From a virus (lineage: Duplodnaviria; Caudoviricetes), in IMG/VR virus record IMGVR_UViG_3300010362_000026, positions 1 through 48,594 of that record: a stretch of 48,594 nucleotides of DNA; one strand, 5' to 3'. Of this stretch, positions 24,769-39,254 are shown piece after piece. Each line of letters opens with the position of its first letter. Position 1 is the stretch's first letter. A program made the translations under genes and the position numbers. Under the pieces are notes generated by a model. It was not told where the DNA came from and searched no databases. It saw only the letters and a list, made by a program, of their open reading frames with translations.

Positions 24769-25777
24769 CTCGTTGATCCTGTTCTGCTACGACTTGCTGT
24801 GCGTACTGTTCGACGGTCAGCCCGAGACGCTTGGCGAGACGCGCCTGACTTTCCGTCAGCCTTACAGTACGGGGCTGAGCACTACCGGTGCGCTGCACTG
24901 CCCCTACCGGGGAGACAGATCGACGCTCCGGGCCGGATGCTGCGCCGCGAAAGCGATCCGGAAACCGCTTGCGCATTTCAGCGTTGAGCCGGGAGTAATA
25001 TTCCGGATTGTCCGGTAGCACCCCTTCGCGCTCGACCAGCTGCTTGTGGTAGCCAAGTGCGTAGCCTGTCATCGCGTCATCGCGACCGAACCATGAGTTC
25101 TTCTTCTGCCATGCCACCGCCTCCGGGTCCGGCTCGGCCTGCTGCGGCTGCGCCTGCGGCGGTGGCTGATTGAAGATGCGCTCGTCCTCGCGCGGCAAAT
25201 TCATCGGGCGATAGGACTGCGCCCGCTCCAGCTTGGCGACAGCGGAAGCGATCTGCTCCTGCGCGGCAATCATTGCCGTGGTGTCGCCAGCGTCGTGAGC
25301 GTCCTTGTAGGCCTGCTTGGCCTGTGCCAGCTGCGACTGCAGGCGACCGTTGTGCTCGCCCATGAGCACCTTCTCGCCGTTCTCGATGAACGCCTTCATC
25401 TGATTGTTCTCAGACATCAGGCGTCTGGCGAGGTTCACGGCCTCGTTACCCATGCGGTTGAGTTCGTCGGCACGCCGTCGCTCCGCATGGATGCGGGCGG
25501 TCATCTGGCCAATGCGCTTCTGCGCGCCCTTGGCGTAGCCTCTCACCTCGTCTTCGTTGGGAAGATCAGGCTCGCCATCGCGTTCATCGTCGGCAACCCA
25601 CTTGCCGCGATCCTCTTCCGGAGTGTCGTCGCCGATCTCGACGGAGAGGGTTTCATCCTTCTTCGGAGGGTTCACCTCCTGCGGCTCTGGCGGTTGCCAG
25701 CGCTCATGCTCCTTACCCTCGGCACCAGCCTCATCGTCTTCGATGAAGTCGTTGTCGAGCATACTGTTCTTCGCCAT
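24737..25777 (-). CDS. Capsid scaffolding protein
   Basis: Acidic N-terminus, coiled coil, W..KN.WFG.D..MT..A, C-terminal V.LT.SQ..LAKRLG...EQYA. Confidence 0.7.
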   Translation of the reverse strand: MAKNSMLDNDFIEDDEAGAEGKEHERWQPPEPQEVNPPKKDETLSVEIGDDTPEEDRGKWVADDERDGEPDLPNEDEVRGYAKGAQKRIGQMTARIHAERRRADELNRMGNEAVNLARRLMSENNQMKAFIENGEKVLMGEHNGRLQSQLAQAKQAYKDAHDAGDTTAMIAAQEQIASAVAKLERAQSYRPMNLPREDERIFNQPPPQAQPQQAEPDPEAVAWQKKNSWFGRDDAMTGYALGYHKQLVEREGVLPDNPEYYSRLNAEMRKRFPDRFRGAASGPERRSVSPVGAVQRTGSAQPRTVRLTESQARLAKRLGLTVEQYAQQVVAEQDQRDGQRNSFTHT

Positions 25778-26145
25778 CAGATGGCCCTTTCGATCTTGCG
25801 CGGATCATCCACGACAGCCTCGACGCTATCGTCATTGATCAAGCGGAATTCCTGATCCTCGATTTTGAGACGGGTGCCGGAATAGCTGCGGAAGATCACC
25901 CAGTCTCCGGACTTGCACCACGCGCCAGTCGGAAACTTGTTCTTGTCGGCATAGGCATCTGGACCCAAGCTGACAACAAAACCAAAGATACTTGCGACCT
26001 CTTCAAGCTTGCGAAGGCTGTCCGGCCGGATGATACCGCCTTCGGTTTTTTCCTCGACTGTCGGGATTGCGACGAGGATTTTATAGCCCTTCGGATCGGG
26101 TATGCACGAAGGGTCTTTCACTTCCTTGATTTCAGAAGCGTACAT
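25777..26145 (-). CDS. groES: Phage co-chaperonin GroES
   Basis: P.GYKILV...EEKTEGGII...V..LGPDAY...GDWV.F..YSGT...RLINDD.V.AV. Confidence 0.85.
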   Translation of the reverse strand: MYASEIKEVKDPSCIPDPKGYKILVAIPTVEEKTEGGIIRPDSLRKLEEVASIFGFVVSLGPDAYADKNKFPTGAWCKSGDWVIFRSYSGTRLKIEDQEFRLINDDSVEAVVDDPRKIERAI

Positions 26146-35115: not shown

Positions 35116-35352
35116 TTAAAACCGCGCTCGCGGTTTATCGTCTATCTTTACTCGGCGATAGACGTAGGGCCGTGTTTCCTGCCAGTCCCCTCTCATTCTG
35201 CTGTAATGCCTTCCGTGCGGCTTTTTCAGTTCGGCGATCTCTTCATTTAATGCAGTGATCTCCTTCTCCAGCCGACTGCTGTAGTCGAACATGGTCTGAA
35301 GATCGCCTCGTAGCCGCTCAATTTCCTGCCAAAGTTCTGATTTTGGTATCAT
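35116..35352 (-). CDS. Coiled-coil hypothetical protein
   Basis: ATGA overlap with the BrnA stop; heptad pattern. Confidence 0.6.
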   Translation of the reverse strand: MIPKSELWQEIERLRGDLQTMFDYSSRLEKEITALNEEIAELKKPHGRHYSRMRGDWQETRPYVYRRVKIDDKPRARF

Positions 35353-35582
35353 TTCTGCCTCTGCACATAGTCAGTCAGTACCTTGTTGATGCGGCCCTGC
35401 CAGTCCCTGCCGGTGCCTTTGAACCAGTCGACCACTTCCGGAGACAGCCGAATGGAAACATGCTCCTTGGCCTTCCGCCCTTCCACCGCGTCATTCTCAA
35501 TTGTTGCTATGTCGGGCTTTTCTGAAGTCGCCACCTTCCGTTTTGCCGCCCCCTTCTCTCCGAACTGACGTGAGATGCTCAT
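35349..35582 (-). CDS. BrnA-family antitoxin (RHH), orphan
   Basis: K..VSIRLSPEVVDWFK.TG..WQ.RIN..L; GAGGAG RBS before ATG 35582. Confidence 0.85.
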   Translation of the reverse strand: MSISRQFGEKGAAKRKVATSEKPDIATIENDAVEGRKAKEHVSIRLSPEVVDWFKGTGRDWQGRINKVLTDYVQRQK

Positions 35583-35612
35583 CTCGTCTCCTCTATCCAA
35601 TTTTCTGAAAGT

Positions 35613-35639
35613 GTAGCACAGATCGTGCTACTGTAGCAC
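35613..35639. promoter_or_regulatory. Operator-like GTAGCAC triple half-site upstream of brnA
   Basis: GTAGCAC-agatc-GTGCTAC-t-GTAGCAC. Confidence 0.55.
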
Positions 35640-36114
35640 AATTTTCCCACCAATTTTGCGCAGAATTTTTGCGAAACCCGGCTTTTCCGAACCCTGAAAA
35701 CCCCGGATTTGTGGTGGGTGGTTGTGTGGGTTAGTTATATTTATGCGCATGCCCACGCGCACACGAATGCTCCCCCCGCCCGTGGGTGCACCCACCCATA
35801 CCTAGCATTCATGCTAGGTCTAGGCCTACCTCAACCCATTGAAATCGTTGGGTTTTCTGCCCTCAGACACATTGTCCTGCCCTGCCAAGATCGTTCGAAA
35901 CGAACGATCTTCATGCGAGCGAGAGCTTGGCATCATGCAATCCCAAACTCAGAGCAAGCTCTGCTCCAACCATCGCAATAGATGGTCACCATATCCTATG
36001 ACCCTCAACCCCTTTGGGGTTAGTGCCGATAGTGTATTGGTTCTTGGTTGTCGGGGGAACGCCGCTGCTATCGCGCTACTCGCTTCGGCATTGCGCAGGG
36101 AGCTTGCTCCCTGC

Positions 36115-36654
36115 TTAATGCCTTGCTCCGTTGCTCTTTGCCGGATCGAACAGCAAAGCAAGCTTTGCCCTCAGCTCCATCTCGATCTCGTTCGGGCTTC
36201 TGTCCTCATTGCCTTCCTGTTTCGTTACTTCACGAAACATTCCGACAATGTCCATCTTGCCTAACGCAATCAGCGCCGAAATCCGCTCGGAAGGCTTCGC
36301 CTCCGGATTTCTCGACTCCGCCATCAACCCATTGAAGACATGCCTTCTGATGGCTATGCCATCCCTCAGCATCGAAGCTTGGATCGCCTTGAGCAGTTGC
36401 TCAATCCTTGCCGCAACCTTCGGCACCTTGGCAAGCTTGCTTGCCGCCCGATTGACCGTCGTCGCCGTCCCATTTGTCGCAAAAGCCCCGCGATAGGCAT
36501 CGCTCAGCTTTTCGCCGTTCGAAACAAGCTGGGCAAATGCTTCCTGCTTCGCCGTCAACCCGTTCAGATCGTAGCGGTTCACCCGATTGGCCTGCACCAA
36601 ACCGCTGAGGAATCTGCCCTTTGCCGATTGTCCAGCCATCAGACCTATTGCCAA
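36115..36654 (-). CDS. terS: Terminase small subunit
   Basis: LTAKQEAFAQ....G...SDAYR.AF......ASKL...PKV.ARI..L HTH; RISAL..LGK..GMF. Confidence 0.75.
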   Translation of the reverse strand: MAIGLMAGQSAKGRFLSGLVQANRVNRYDLNGLTAKQEAFAQLVSNGEKLSDAYRGAFATNGTATTVNRAASKLAKVPKVAARIEQLLKAIQASMLRDGIAIRRHVFNGLMAESRNPEAKPSERISALIALGKMDIVGMFREVTKQEGNEDRSPNEIEMELRAKLALLFDPAKSNGARH

Positions 36655-36802
36655 CCTACTTCGTAGCCCGACAATAGCATTTTCCCGACAAAACCGGAAT
36701 TCTCATGCGCCAGCATGATGCGCCTCATGACGCGCCCTTTCTTCACGCCTGTTTCCACGCGCGGCCTTCGGCTCCCGCGCCGAAATCGCGCACCGAAAGA
36801 GG

Positions 36803-36830
36803 TTGACAAAAATCGTTCGATGGGGAAAAT
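36803..36830 (+). promoter_or_regulatory. Sigma70-like early promoter
   Basis: Perfect TTGACA, 16-nt spacer, GAAAAT; sits at the strand switch. Confidence 0.55.
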
Positions 36831-36834
36831 GGTT

Positions 36835-37175
36835 GTCAGGTTGCCGTTGTGAAACGCCAGCCAAAACGGAAAGCCGGATGGCTCCCGTAGGAACCGAGAG
36901 AAAACTCGGTGCCGCTTCGAAAGCTGTGAAGCTCCGAAGGAGAAGGCGAAAAAACCGGACGGGGAGTTTCCCTGATCATGCTCGGTGCCGCAGAACTCCG
37001 CAGTGATTGCGCTGGTTCTGGATCGATGGCGGGGTTCAAATGATCGGCGAGGTTTCTGCGGTCGTTGCTGAAAGCAATCGGAAGGTGATGTTCAGCGCTG
37101 GTATTCCTCACTGGATTGTAGCGTGGAAATACGTGTCAAGCTGAAAGCTGCCGTGTTTCCATTGTGCAATCCATC
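36835..37175 (+). ncRNA. Large multi-domain structured leader RNA (candidate novel ncRNA)
   Basis: No credible ORF; many stems with GAAA/GNRA-type loops and long-range pairings. Confidence 0.55.
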
Positions 37176-37192
37176 AACAGGAGAACTTAGCT

Positions 37193-37774
37193 ATGGCTAA
37201 GAACGTGAAGAATACCTCGACCAAGACCGAAGAAACTGCCGAGGACAAGCTTGCGCATTTCAAGGAAAACCTTGAAATGCACACTGTCGAGGTGATCGGC
37301 GGCAAAAAGTTCGAAGTCGGCCTTAAGGCCGATTGCACCAAGGTGATCTTCTCACCCAAGTATCGTCGGATTTTCGCCGTGCTGTCTTTCCCCAACGGGG
37401 AAAACGCAACGATCTCTCCGGAACATCTGAAGGCCGTCAAGGCCTTGAGCCCGGCGACCAAGGCCACCGTGGAGGCTCGCAACGAGGATGAACAGAGTAA
37501 TACTCTGTACATCCCCGGCAAGATCGTCGGCAAGGAAGGCGAGAAATCGTTCTTCTTTCGCTATGGCGAAAAGTTCACGGCGGATCGACTGCCGAAATCG
37601 CTCGCCGAGATCGTCCATGAGAACGATGATGGCTCTGTCATCATCGCTCTGACGACGTGGAAGGCTCGGCAGCTCTGCAATAATGCAGAGATGTTCGCCA
37701 GATTGGTCGAGAAACAGGCGGTTTACGACAAGATCGTAAATCCGCCGAAGCAGACCGCAAAAAAGACCAAGTAA
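37193..37774 (+). CDS. Early hypothetical protein
   Basis: CAGGAG RBS; 193 aa, Lys/Glu-rich. Confidence 0.8.
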   Translation: MAKNVKNTSTKTEETAEDKLAHFKENLEMHTVEVIGGKKFEVGLKADCTKVIFSPKYRRIFAVLSFPNGENATISPEHLKAVKALSPATKATVEARNEDEQSNTLYIPGKIVGKEGEKSFFFRYGEKFTADRLPKSLAEIVHENDDGSVIIALTTWKARQLCNNAEMFARLVEKQAVYDKIVNPPKQTAKKTK

Positions 37775-37783
37775 TTGGTCTTT

Positions 37784-37854
37784 GGAGCGGGGAGAAATCC
37801 CCGCTCCTTTGCGATCTACAGTCAATCAGTGACTGTAGATTTCAGAGGAGCCAC
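37784..37854 (+). repeat. Early intergenic double-hairpin element, copy 1
   Basis: GGAGCGGGGA-GAAA-TCCCCGCTCC; 11-bp stem ATCTACAGTCA/TGACTGTAGAT; ends GAGGAGCCAC. Confidence 0.85.
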
Positions 37855-37860
37855 CTTGAA

Positions 37861-38055
37861 ATGTCGCTAGAAACTCTTGAAAGCGTACTCGAAACCTTGG
37901 TTTCGGAACGTCTTTTCTACATGAGAGAAGCGAAACGCTATCCAGAGCTTAAGCTCTGGAATGTCGTGAGTGATCGAAACCGCCGCATCAAACTCTGCAA
38001 AGAGCAGATTTTGAGAACACGGTTTCGGCAGAACAACGCAATGGCTGCCGAATAG
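37861..38055 (+). CDS. Early hypothetical protein
   Basis: Follows the RBS of element 1. Confidence 0.7.
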   Translation: MSLETLESVLETLVSERLFYMREAKRYPELKLWNVVSDRNRRIKLCKEQILRTRFRQNNAMAAE

Positions 38056-38060
38056 CAGCC

Positions 38061-38134
38061 ATGGGGAGGAGAAATCCTCCCCATTCGCTCTTGCGAGAAG
38101 TACTAGATAGGCTAGTACTTCTTTGAGGAGCCAC
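38061..38134 (+). repeat. Early intergenic double-hairpin element, copy 2
   Basis: ATGGGGAGGA-GAAA-TCCTCCCCAT; 11-bp stem AGAAGTACTAG/CTAGTACTTCT; ends GAGGAGCCAC. Confidence 0.85.
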
Positions 38135-38138
38135 GAAA

Positions 38139-38450
38139 ATGCTCAATATCGGAACCATTTCTCACGGTACCATGCGCACTCAGGATTTGCTGGTCAGCTT
38201 CGCAGAAGCTTACAAGCAATACTGCAGCGGGCCGAGTTTCGACGGGCTGCTTTGGGCTGAAGCCCAAGGTTATGCGAGCCTTCTGAAGCATGAGAATGTT
38301 TCGGATGATTGCTGGTACAGAGCCCATGGCGTTCTGGATGATCTGTTTGATCGTCTGGACGAATTGGCTGGCCGCTATGACTGCTACTTCGGTACTACCG
38401 AGGGCGACGGATCGGATTTCGGCTTCTGGCCGATAGCGGATGACGAATAG
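38139..38450 (+). CDS. Early hypothetical protein (acidic)
   Basis: GTISHGT.R.QDL...LFD.L......YFG..EGDGSDFGFW. Confidence 0.8.
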   Translation: MLNIGTISHGTMRTQDLLVSFAEAYKQYCSGPSFDGLLWAEAQGYASLLKHENVSDDCWYRAHGVLDDLFDRLDELAGRYDCYFGTTEGDGSDFGFWPIADDE

Positions 38451-38457
38451 TCATCCT

Positions 38458-38531
38458 AGAGCGGGGAGAAATCCCCGCTCTCTCTTGCGAGCTACAGCAA
38501 ATCGTTGCTGTAGCTTTGAGGAGAGAGCCAC
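38458..38531 (+). repeat. Early intergenic double-hairpin element, copy 3
   Basis: AGAGCGGGGA-GAAA-TCCCCGCTCT; 11-bp stem AGCTACAGCAA/TTGCTGTAGCT; ends GAGGAGAGAGCCAC. Confidence 0.85.
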
Positions 38532-38532
38532 A

Positions 38533-38787
38533 ATGATGGTTACCACCAAAGCTCAACGCAAAGCGTTGAAACGGGTTTTTGATCGCTGTCCTTTGTTCAT
38601 TCTTTGGAATGGACAAACTTGGATGCCGACCAATGCCGAGGGTTGGAACGCTCATAAGCGTTCCACTCAGCCGGATATGACCTACCGGCAATTCCGCAAG
38701 CTGGCCATAGCAAGCTATGGCTGCATCATGGTTCCATGGTGCGGAATGTGGCTCGGCATTGAGCCGGACGGCTACACACACAGCTGA
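38533..38787 (+). CDS. Early hypothetical protein
   Basis: Start moved to 38533; TYRQFR...MV.W.GMWLGIEPDGYTHS. Confidence 0.8.
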   Translation: MMVTTKAQRKALKRVFDRCPLFILWNGQTWMPTNAEGWNAHKRSTQPDMTYRQFRKLAIASYGCIMVPWCGMWLGIEPDGYTHS

Positions 38788-38792
38788 GAACT

Positions 38793-38869
38793 GGCGGGGC
38801 GAAAGCCCCGCCTATTCACTCTTGTTTCAAGTAATGGATAGGCCATTACTTGATTGAGGAGTGAGCCAC
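38793..38869 (+). repeat. Early intergenic double-hairpin element, copy 4
   Basis: GGCGGGGC-GAAA-GCCCCGCC; 11-bp stem TCAAGTAATGG/CCATTACTTGA; ends GAGGAGTGAGCCAC. Confidence 0.85.
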
Positions 38870-39043
38870 ATGAAAACATGTCCTTGCGGATCGGGCAAAT
38901 ATCGTGAAGAACTTCACGATGCTCGCGGCATCTTCTGCTGCTTCTACTGCGAAGATTGCGAGAAGGAAAAGCGCTCGCGCTATCGTCAAGACGTTCTTGA
39001 CGATCCGAACTACTGGCATGACGAGCCGATAGACGAGGAATAA
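38870..39043 (+). CDS. Small Zn-binding early protein (SEC-C-like CPCGSG)
   Basis: MKTCPCGSGK....DARGI.C..C..C. Confidence 0.75.
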   Translation: MKTCPCGSGKYREELHDARGIFCCFYCEDCEKEKRSRYRQDVLDDPNYWHDEPIDEE

Positions 39044-39054
39044 CCAGCGAAATC

Positions 39055-39087
39055 AAGGGGTTGCGCGCAAGCGCAGCCCCTTTTTTT
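39055..39087 (+). terminator. Intrinsic terminator ending the early cluster
   Basis: GGGGTTGCGC-GCAA-GCGCAGCCCC followed by T7. Confidence 0.85.
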
Positions 39088-39120
39088 GTGCTTTCGCGCG
39101 CGGGAGGGCCAGCGCCTTCT

Positions 39121-39166
39121 GAAATCACAGCTTACGCTTTCCGGAAATCACAGCCTACGCTTTGCG
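39121..39166 (+). repeat. Tandem 23-bp direct repeat, two copies
   Basis: GAAATCACAGCTTACGCTTTCCG / GAAATCACAGCCTACGCTTTGCG. Confidence 0.8.
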
Positions 39167-39254
39167 GTGGACATTCAGGTGATCCCACCCCATGATAAAA
39201 ATCGACCGATTTGGAGACAATGCAATGAGGGAAATATCCGAAGGACAATACATT

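Follow-up and report, generated by a model that had tools for sequence, protein, structure and literature searches.

The early operon of the phage studied here opens with a real, conserved and uncatalogued RNA core of about 200 nt, followed by an ordinary processing stem. We tentatively favor a model in which the whole leader is a processed, trans-acting decoy or scaffold RNA that RNase III would free from the early transcript; that the leader acts in trans on a protein at all seems to us roughly an even bet. The first-pass annotation of this DNA had read one novel, multi-domain non-coding RNA of about 340 nt. What stands of that reading is an uncatalogued, conserved stretch, some 200 nt long, that comes straight after the early promoter, while a single 340-nt RNA is unsupported, because the 3' 140 nt are unalignable in a homolog and the long stem that ends the leader is one of five look-alike processing stems. 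As for the functions that the annotation had offered, a decoy fits best, an antiterminator is possible, and a ribozyme is without support. What ribozymes and long non-coding RNAs do in the early operons of phages is a wider question, on which this leader bears: if the decoy model is true, an uncatalogued RNA joins the short list of phage RNAs that act on host proteins, and if the leader is only protective, the operon has an ordinary T7-style processing layout.

The early leader and its probable processing stems

The window, by which we mean the whole 48,594-nt stretch of DNA that was analyzed, is one whole linear virus contig, estimated to be 80% complete, and its DNA is best represented in a soil metagenome run; no RNA run was listed among its holders, a result that is neutral as to expression. 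The portal protein resembles those of Pelagibacter phages HTVC023P and HTVC027P, Roseobacter phages CRP-901 and CRP-902 and Caulobacter RW-group phages (33-42%), and the source is an HTVC023P-like soil podophage. The minus strand carries the terminase, head, ejection and tail-fibre genes and the plus strand a primase/helicase; no DNA polymerase turned up in the 47 ORFs that were scanned, as would fit an incomplete genome. The leader occupies the divergent gap between the terminase small subunit-like gene and the first early gene, gene 1:

36115..36654, minus strand: terminase small subunit-like gene (PHROG 51, E 3.5e-10), heading the divergent (late) side
36803..36830, plus strand: sigma-70-type promoter-like site, TTGACA-16-GAAAAT, 10/12 consensus matches
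37179..37195, plus strand: Shine-Dalgarno AGGAG and gene 1 start codon (37193)
37193..37774, plus strand: gene 1, 193 aa, two small beta domains (model pLDDT 85.7), the N-domain an SH3/KOW-type barrel
39055..39092, plus strand: first site resembling an intrinsic terminator, with a long run of T; it lies between the small early genes and a promoter-like site at 39168

Ten promoter-like sites were found, against 4.4 expected in shuffles, and transcription very probably starts near 36836. The leader contains no plus-strand ORF with a ribosome-binding site. The strong plus-strand terminators of the early region lie at 39055 and 39892, with promoter-like sites behind them at 39168 and 39965; just upstream of the former of these two sites, 39121-39166 holds a tandem 23-nt repeat (91% alike) that is a possible operator.

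The position of the leader also invites a reading at the level of DNA, as a single-stranded structure for genome entry, replication or packaging. It adjoins the terminase-like gene and the stretch 35600-36100, which is non-coding, has a strong GC skew and several palindromes, is perhaps a genome end or packaging site, and is where contigs of the source run break (35698-35725). We consider this reading very improbable: the leader begins at the likely transcription start, its plus strand folds better than the reverse (z -3.7 versus -2.2), it has GNRA loops and G-U pairs, and the equivalent places in relatives hold RNA enzymes.

Long stems of one design precede each of the first five spacer-separated early genes:

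37112..37173, plus strand: long stem (9 bp, GC/UG loop, 11 bp; z -7.3) just before the gene 1 ribosome-binding site, a likely RNase III site
37785..37851, plus strand: spacer 1, a GAAA hairpin plus a long stem, with the next ribosome-binding site in the 3' arm of the stem
38061..38131, plus strand: spacer 2, designed as spacer 1, GC/UG loop
38459..38528, plus strand: spacer 3, designed as spacer 1, GC/UG loop
38794..38864, plus strand: spacer 4, designed as spacer 1, GUU/UUG loop

The four spacer stems (6-10 plus 11-12 bp) have z-scores of -7.4 to -8.5. The leader stem shares a GC/UG loop under an arm of 11-12 bp with spacers 2 and 3, and spacers 1 and 4 come close to this form. T7 early RNase III sites are stems with an internal loop, and the T7-early form, a stem of about two turns with an internal loop between early genes, recurs at the leader and all four spacers. 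We predict that the last stem and the spacer stems are T7-style RNase III-type sites, an ordinary feature, and RNase III is probably the enzyme that cuts them. Modeled cutting raises the accessibility of the ribosome-binding sites at spacer 2 (0.16 to 0.35), spacer 3 (0.02 to 0.19) and spacer 4 (0.18 to 0.28), and lowers it at spacer 1 (0.39 to 0.35) and gene 1 (0.86 to 0.54); the gene 1 site is covered only in short transcripts in the model. An anti-Shine-Dalgarno stem at gene 1 (p 0.94) was discarded, as it is lost when more coding sequence is folded along.

PMC5371410 describes RNase III as cutting T7 and lambda RNAs and opening occluded binding sites, and real RNase III sites as often poor matches to the box consensus. 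The window is like T7 early RNA and the lambda N leader and cIII in having a host-promoter early transcript with long imperfect stems before successive small genes, and in having stems that overlap or abut ribosome-binding sites. Unlike T7 and lambda, it carries a conserved 200-nt folded core with a repeated module before the first stem; cutting here is predicted, and the modeled opening of binding sites is inconsistent.

Conservation and fold of the core

The 341 nt from 36835 to 37175 fold at -136.2 kcal/mol, better than shuffled controls (z -4.12; 0 of 100 shuffles as good), and they do so mostly through the last stem: z is -7.3 for 37110-37175, -3.2 for 36835-36980 and -0.6 for 36980-37110, and the leader without its last stem (36835-37110) has a z of -1.3, hardly beyond shuffles. 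When the whole genome was scanned in 110-nt windows (882 of them; mean z -0.71, 67 with z below -3), those in the leader, five in number, gave z-scores of -2.9, -0.9, -0.2, -0.5 and -3.3. They fold more weakly than most early coding windows in 37181-38885 on the plus strand, where the coding DNA of the small early genes pairs strongly with itself and z lies between -3 and -12.7 in most windows; a 14-bp hairpin lies within gene 1, at 37252-37283. Since the leader is unremarkable among the 882 windows and its z-scores differ so by part, energy alone backs only the last stem and the 5' hairpins.

Conservation marks out a different part of the leader. A soil run from another study (X3) yielded one 432-nt contig (depth 3.8), whose alignment to 36841-37042 contains 24 substitutions and 18 gap letters; 156 unlike letters then replace 140 of the window, 37183-37216, at the start of gene 1, is identical, and the alignment is lost after gene 1 codon 8. 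The substitutions listed individually (15 of the 24) all lie from 36934 on, and the other 9 are near the ends. Among those listed, none falls within the 62 nt of 36872-36933, loops included, where X3 has 5 extra letters at a single site. In the same run, 47 of 257 aligned nt differ in the terminase-like gene (18%), and against this gene the conservation of the 62 nt has a P of about 4e-6 if sites are independent, the comparison being one between separate contigs that possibly come from different phages. On this sequence comparison, 36841-37042 is conserved, and 36872-36933 within it is conserved above the coding background, in two known copies that are close kin. A further run, X2, contains a near-identical strain (151 nt without a difference) and adds no covariation.

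We find that 36841-37042 is best modeled as a chain of hairpins with a duplicated two-hairpin module, leading into a less settled middle domain:

36839..36862, plus strand: H1 hairpin with a GUGA tetraloop; pair probabilities 0.97-0.98
36866..36913, plus strand: module A, H2 plus one base plus H3 (p 0.96-0.97); ends in the first GTGCCGC; the most conserved part
36915..36991, plus strand: module B, H4 plus H5 (p 0.70 and 0.48, and module alignment); ends in the second GTGCCGC
36993..37096, plus strand: middle domain; three alternative folds within 5 kcal/mol; conserved to 37042, unalignable beyond

In this model H2 (36866-88) consists of ACGG/CCGT, an AA/C loop and AGCC/GGCT, and H4 (36915-39; p 0.70) of CTTCG/CGAAG, an AA/C loop and AGCT/AGCT; H3 (36890-913) pairs ACCGAG with CTCGGT, and H5 (p 0.48) is ACCG/CGGT enclosing a variable hairpin. 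Because H2 and H4 are built alike (a stem, the AA/C loop, an AGC/GCT stem and a loop of four bases), and H3 and H5 each finish with CTCGGTGCCGC, the 5' half would be a duplicated two-hairpin module. An exact 11-nt repeat arises in 40 of 2000 shuffles. The hairpins H1 to H3 are likely to form as drawn, and the remaining ones less so.

The X3 homolog bears on these helices in part. Its sole clean compensatory pair, C36956-G36984 to T-A in H5, is weak, since 36956 sits in a stretch where most bases changed. Insertions in module B suit H4 and, equally, a longer form of the CTCC-GAA-GGAG hairpin that the first-pass annotation had proposed, so that they do not decide between the two; they also abolish the AA/C loop of H4, and the module duplication is thus only partly kept. 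No conserved pseudoknot was found in the leader among helices of at least 6 pairs.

All the motifs named in the first-pass annotation are present where it had put them, including the two occurrences of CTCGGTGCCGC, at 36905 and 36981, and several of its helices hold: CGTT/AACG (p 0.97), ACCGAG/CTCGGT (p 0.96) and the last stem (p 0.99-1.00). The multibranch layout into which it had arranged them mostly does not. Its first domain, in which TCAGG/CCTGA would close CTCCCGT/ACGGGGAG, costs 12 kcal/mol when forced (-124.1) and is disfavored by the homolog too: the CTCCCGT arm has no listed change in X3, yet 3 of the 7 proposed CTCCCGT/ACGGGGAG pairs break and one base is inserted, as read by hand. 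The second domain is possible by itself, at a cost of 3 kcal/mol (-133.1), and forcing both domains together costs 20 (-116.4); the chain H1-H5 costs 2 (-134.1). Over 36993-37066, the annotation's CCGCAGAA/TTCTGCGG pairing is among the three folds that lie within 5 kcal/mol of one another, and the end of the X3 alignment at 37042 favors a local helix, 36993-37001/37029-37037, without proving it.

Searches for a known counterpart agree with the annotation, which could not match the leader to tRNA, tmRNA, RNase P or hammerhead RNAs. Rfam 15 gave 0 matches at the gathering cut-off over the whole window and, at E<=10 within 36600-37300, only two chance-level matches, and ARAGORN found 0 tRNA or tmRNA genes. 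A search by blastn of 50,697 phage records for leader homologs returned nothing real (5 short chance matches). Exact patterns hit 6, 20 and 119 loci in viral contigs, none similar outside the pattern, and two loci in metagenome contigs, of which one (L110) is the window itself and the other (L111) a chance match inside a long ORF. Six leader motifs of 11-12 letters were not found in 6 supplementary files of PMC10690425, and the open-access literature yielded no paper on this leader RNA. A TwoAYGGAY assignment was dropped, the loop being CCGGAT and Rfam giving no match.

The motifs GGAAAG, GTGC(C/A)(A/G)CAGA and TGAAA occur in the leader in the order of E. coli rnpB, as they might if the leader were an RNase P RNA that was captured and has decayed, or imitated the tRNA-binding half of one. 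Such an origin is barely credible. RF00010 has no match at E<=10, in a search whose control matched in 11 of 14 genomes; the local alignment score is reached by 37 of 300 shuffles; a profile of 10 rnpB genes gives no match, and when gaps are made cheap, 60 to 107 of 150 shuffles score as well; and the listed helices include no partner strand for P4. The leader is like type A RNase P RNA (RF00010) in a few short motifs in similar order and in similar length, and unlike it in that four tests give no significant score and P4 cannot form. As a separate observation, Microcystis phage MaAM05 carries, without annotation, a gene resembling RNase P RNA in which both conserved end motifs are present (L240; MW495066.1, 115073-115768).

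Other leaders and hammerheads in the same slot

We collected relatives through the terminase small subunit-like gene and kept 80 loci; 17 of 83 loci also match the window's large terminase (50-59%). Leaders were compared in 10 loci and then in 18 upstream regions, several of them near-duplicates, of which 11 were folded with ends set by eye. Most loci of the group have a promoter-like site and a non-coding folded leader of roughly 270-620 nt, and a promoter was found in the L012 upstream region; the terminase-like loci L024 and L025 have almost no leader. The window leader has no similarity to any of the 18 upstream regions of relatives.

Several relatives carry hammerheads where the window has long stems. 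Above the Rfam cut-off there are 8, in early spacers of L011, L012 and L016 (3 of 16 loci), whose minus-strand early regions have type II and III hammerheads arrayed between the small early genes; at E<=0.05 but below the cut-off there are 4 in L012 and L016 and one more in L009. A hammerhead core also stands just before the first ribosome-binding site in 5 of the 18 upstream regions (L008, L009, L011, L012, L016). Two of these five leader-end hammerheads were scored singly, and both are under the Rfam cut-off (L009, 29.4 of 48.5 bits, E 1.7e-4; L012, 20.6 bits, E 0.069). In the leaders of L001/L007, L014/L015 and L017/L018, no hammerhead core was found. Hammerheads flank phage and prophage genes, and one lies upstream of the first early ORF in HF1/HF2, according to PMC3088659, which calls the purpose of a triple hammerhead arrangement unknown. 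Relative to those hammerheads and to Rfam RF00008 and RF02276, the relatives' copies occupy the same places and would do the same job of splitting the early transcript and severing the leader; unlike the relatives, the window has no hammerhead core in its leader or spacers and would use long stems instead.

The leaders themselves fall into unrelated sets. A common motif followed by a hammerhead core is found on the minus strand at L008:639-890, L009:819-1065, L012:4570-4790 and L016:4534-4765. This motif (ACCGCT...AGYGCGA plus further hairpins) has 10 of 36 predicted pairs changed on both sides and belongs to no Rfam family, and a profile of it recovered only its four members at E<0.3, with the window absent to E 20. 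The minus-strand early leaders L001:4172-4580 and L007:1484-1895 fold with a module repeated in tandem (GAC-TAAG-GCGCC...GTGAGC-GTC), comparable to the duplicated module of the window leader, and end in a long hairpin ahead of the ribosome-binding site; 16 of their 110 pairs are changed on both sides, and they have no Rfam match. A twister-like reading of their repeats was set aside as lacking Rfam support. Other long multi-hairpin leaders, unrelated to the rest, lie about 225-725 nt upstream of the terminase-like gene in L068 and L077, at about 220-840 in L017/L018 and at about 205-565 in L014/L015. L081-L083, which are close by the helicase, differ in gene order.

Severing the leader from the message would thus recur in this group by two means, with the leader sequence swapped: hammerhead cores in relatives and the long stem here. 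The presence of long stems where relatives have hammerheads suggests that selection acts on the cut as such, irrespective of what performs it.

The hammerheads in this operon of relatives, together with a core conserved in sequence, might point to a self-cleaving or other ribozyme of an undescribed class that replaces them in the window. We regard this as improbable. No Rfam ribozyme matches at E<=10, the leader is without a CTGANGA or CGAAAC core, and helices of at least 6 pairs form no conserved pseudoknot; moreover, the long stem already fills the cutting slot, and the relatives have their folded leader and their hammerhead as distinct elements.

The diversity of these leaders also fits a passive, protective role, in which hairpins would protect the 5' end and bar Rho from a long stretch without translation, next to an ordinary RNase III site and with no specific ligand. 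The whole early region is strongly folded, coding DNA included, the relatives' leaders differ in sequence, and the middle part of the window leader folds no better than shuffles. We think such a role unlikely, since it leaves unexplained the unchanged loops and linkers over 62 nt in the homolog and the exact 11-nt repeat (40/2000 shuffles), and since relatives keep 270-620 nt although L024 and L025 have almost none.

A broader and more speculative proposal, which we hold to be doubtful as it stands, is that the early operon in podophages of this group starts with a slot for an RNA gene whose content can be exchanged. A different folded RNA would occupy it in each lineage and be freed by a hammerhead or an RNase III stem as an instant counter-defense; here the two-module RNA would work with the SH3/WYL-like protein of the adjoining gene, or against the host counterpart of that protein.

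Candidate partners and mode of action

In the model that we favor, host polymerase would start near 36836 and the RNA would fold during synthesis; RNase III would then cut the stem at 37112-37173 and the four spacer stems, so that each message would carry one gene and a leader of about 330 nt would be set free. The repeated loops of the freed leader would bind a protein early in infection, as a decoy or scaffold, and candidate partners are the SH3/WYL-like protein that gene 1 encodes and, on the host side, an RNA-binding or defense protein. Cutting on the 3' side of the leader RNA is compatible with a role in cis too. Two precedents are rAcrVIA1 (PMC12948488), a phage RNA that neutralizes host defense by mimicry, and ToxIN antitoxin RNA mimicry (cited in PMC8829019); the leader is like both in being a non-coding phage RNA with a repeated unit that would be available ahead of the phage proteins. 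The Rfam comparison gave no link of the leader to crRNA or ToxI.

Gene 1 follows the leader RNA in both known copies, which are close kin. Its family comprises about 29 unnamed relatives at E<=0.001; in the alignment (A3), a 1294-aa repeat protein was left out and the query added. None of 30 members has a Pfam match over the cut-off, and gene 1 has no PHROG family; searches for it or its relatives in viral contigs, genome contigs (one 18-residue match) and phage records gave nothing real. The N-domain is an SH3-type barrel with matches of Z 7.5-6.0 over 50-66 residues (rmsd 1.7-3.0 in the top rows), tied between PsaE (Z 7.5), NusG and Spt5 (7.1-6.9) and ribosomal S4e, none of which reaches Z 8. 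The best Foldseek rows are to the WYL regulator DriD (E 6e-4, TM 0.29-0.36, rmsd 10-11), and the Atlas lists WYL clusters below its naming bar, at TM 0.45. Overall, the protein is weakly alike in structure to WYL/WCX regulators and lacks their DNA-binding domain. On these structural models, the gene 1 protein may bind nucleic acid.

The same protein could serve an RNA acting in cis. As an antiterminator or anti-pausing RNA, either HK022 put-like or lambda nut-like with gene 1 as an N/NusG-like partner, the leader's nascent modules would bind RNA polymerase and carry it through the folded early region. The leader lies directly behind the promoter, and module A is predicted to be two stem-loops joined by one base (H2 + A36889 + H3, p 0.96). 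HK022 put is a 73-nt V-shaped stem-loop pair (PMC9378689), and the likeness lies in the promoter-proximal position and in two stem-loops joined by a single base. In addition, the first domain of gene 1 matches NusG/Spt5 KOW barrels (Z 7.1-6.9), and G+C-rich GAAA hairpins with short T runs after each early gene might pause polymerase. We nevertheless judge this mode of action rather unlikely. The AGACG/CGUCU helix of put is missing, with neither 5-mer in 36835-37192, and the linker base is A, not G as in put. Promoter-like sites follow both strong plus-strand terminators (39055, 39892), so that there would be little to read through. The barrel domain matches unrelated SH3 folds, PsaE for one, equally well, with none at Z 8, and the relatives' leaders are unrelated. 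Also unlike HK022 put, the window has two tandem modules within a 340-nt leader and no lambdoid context.

Elsewhere on the minus strand of the window, we note an antitoxin-like gene at 35349-35600 (phrog_4692) and a GroES co-chaperonin gene at 25777-26145 (phrog_3188).
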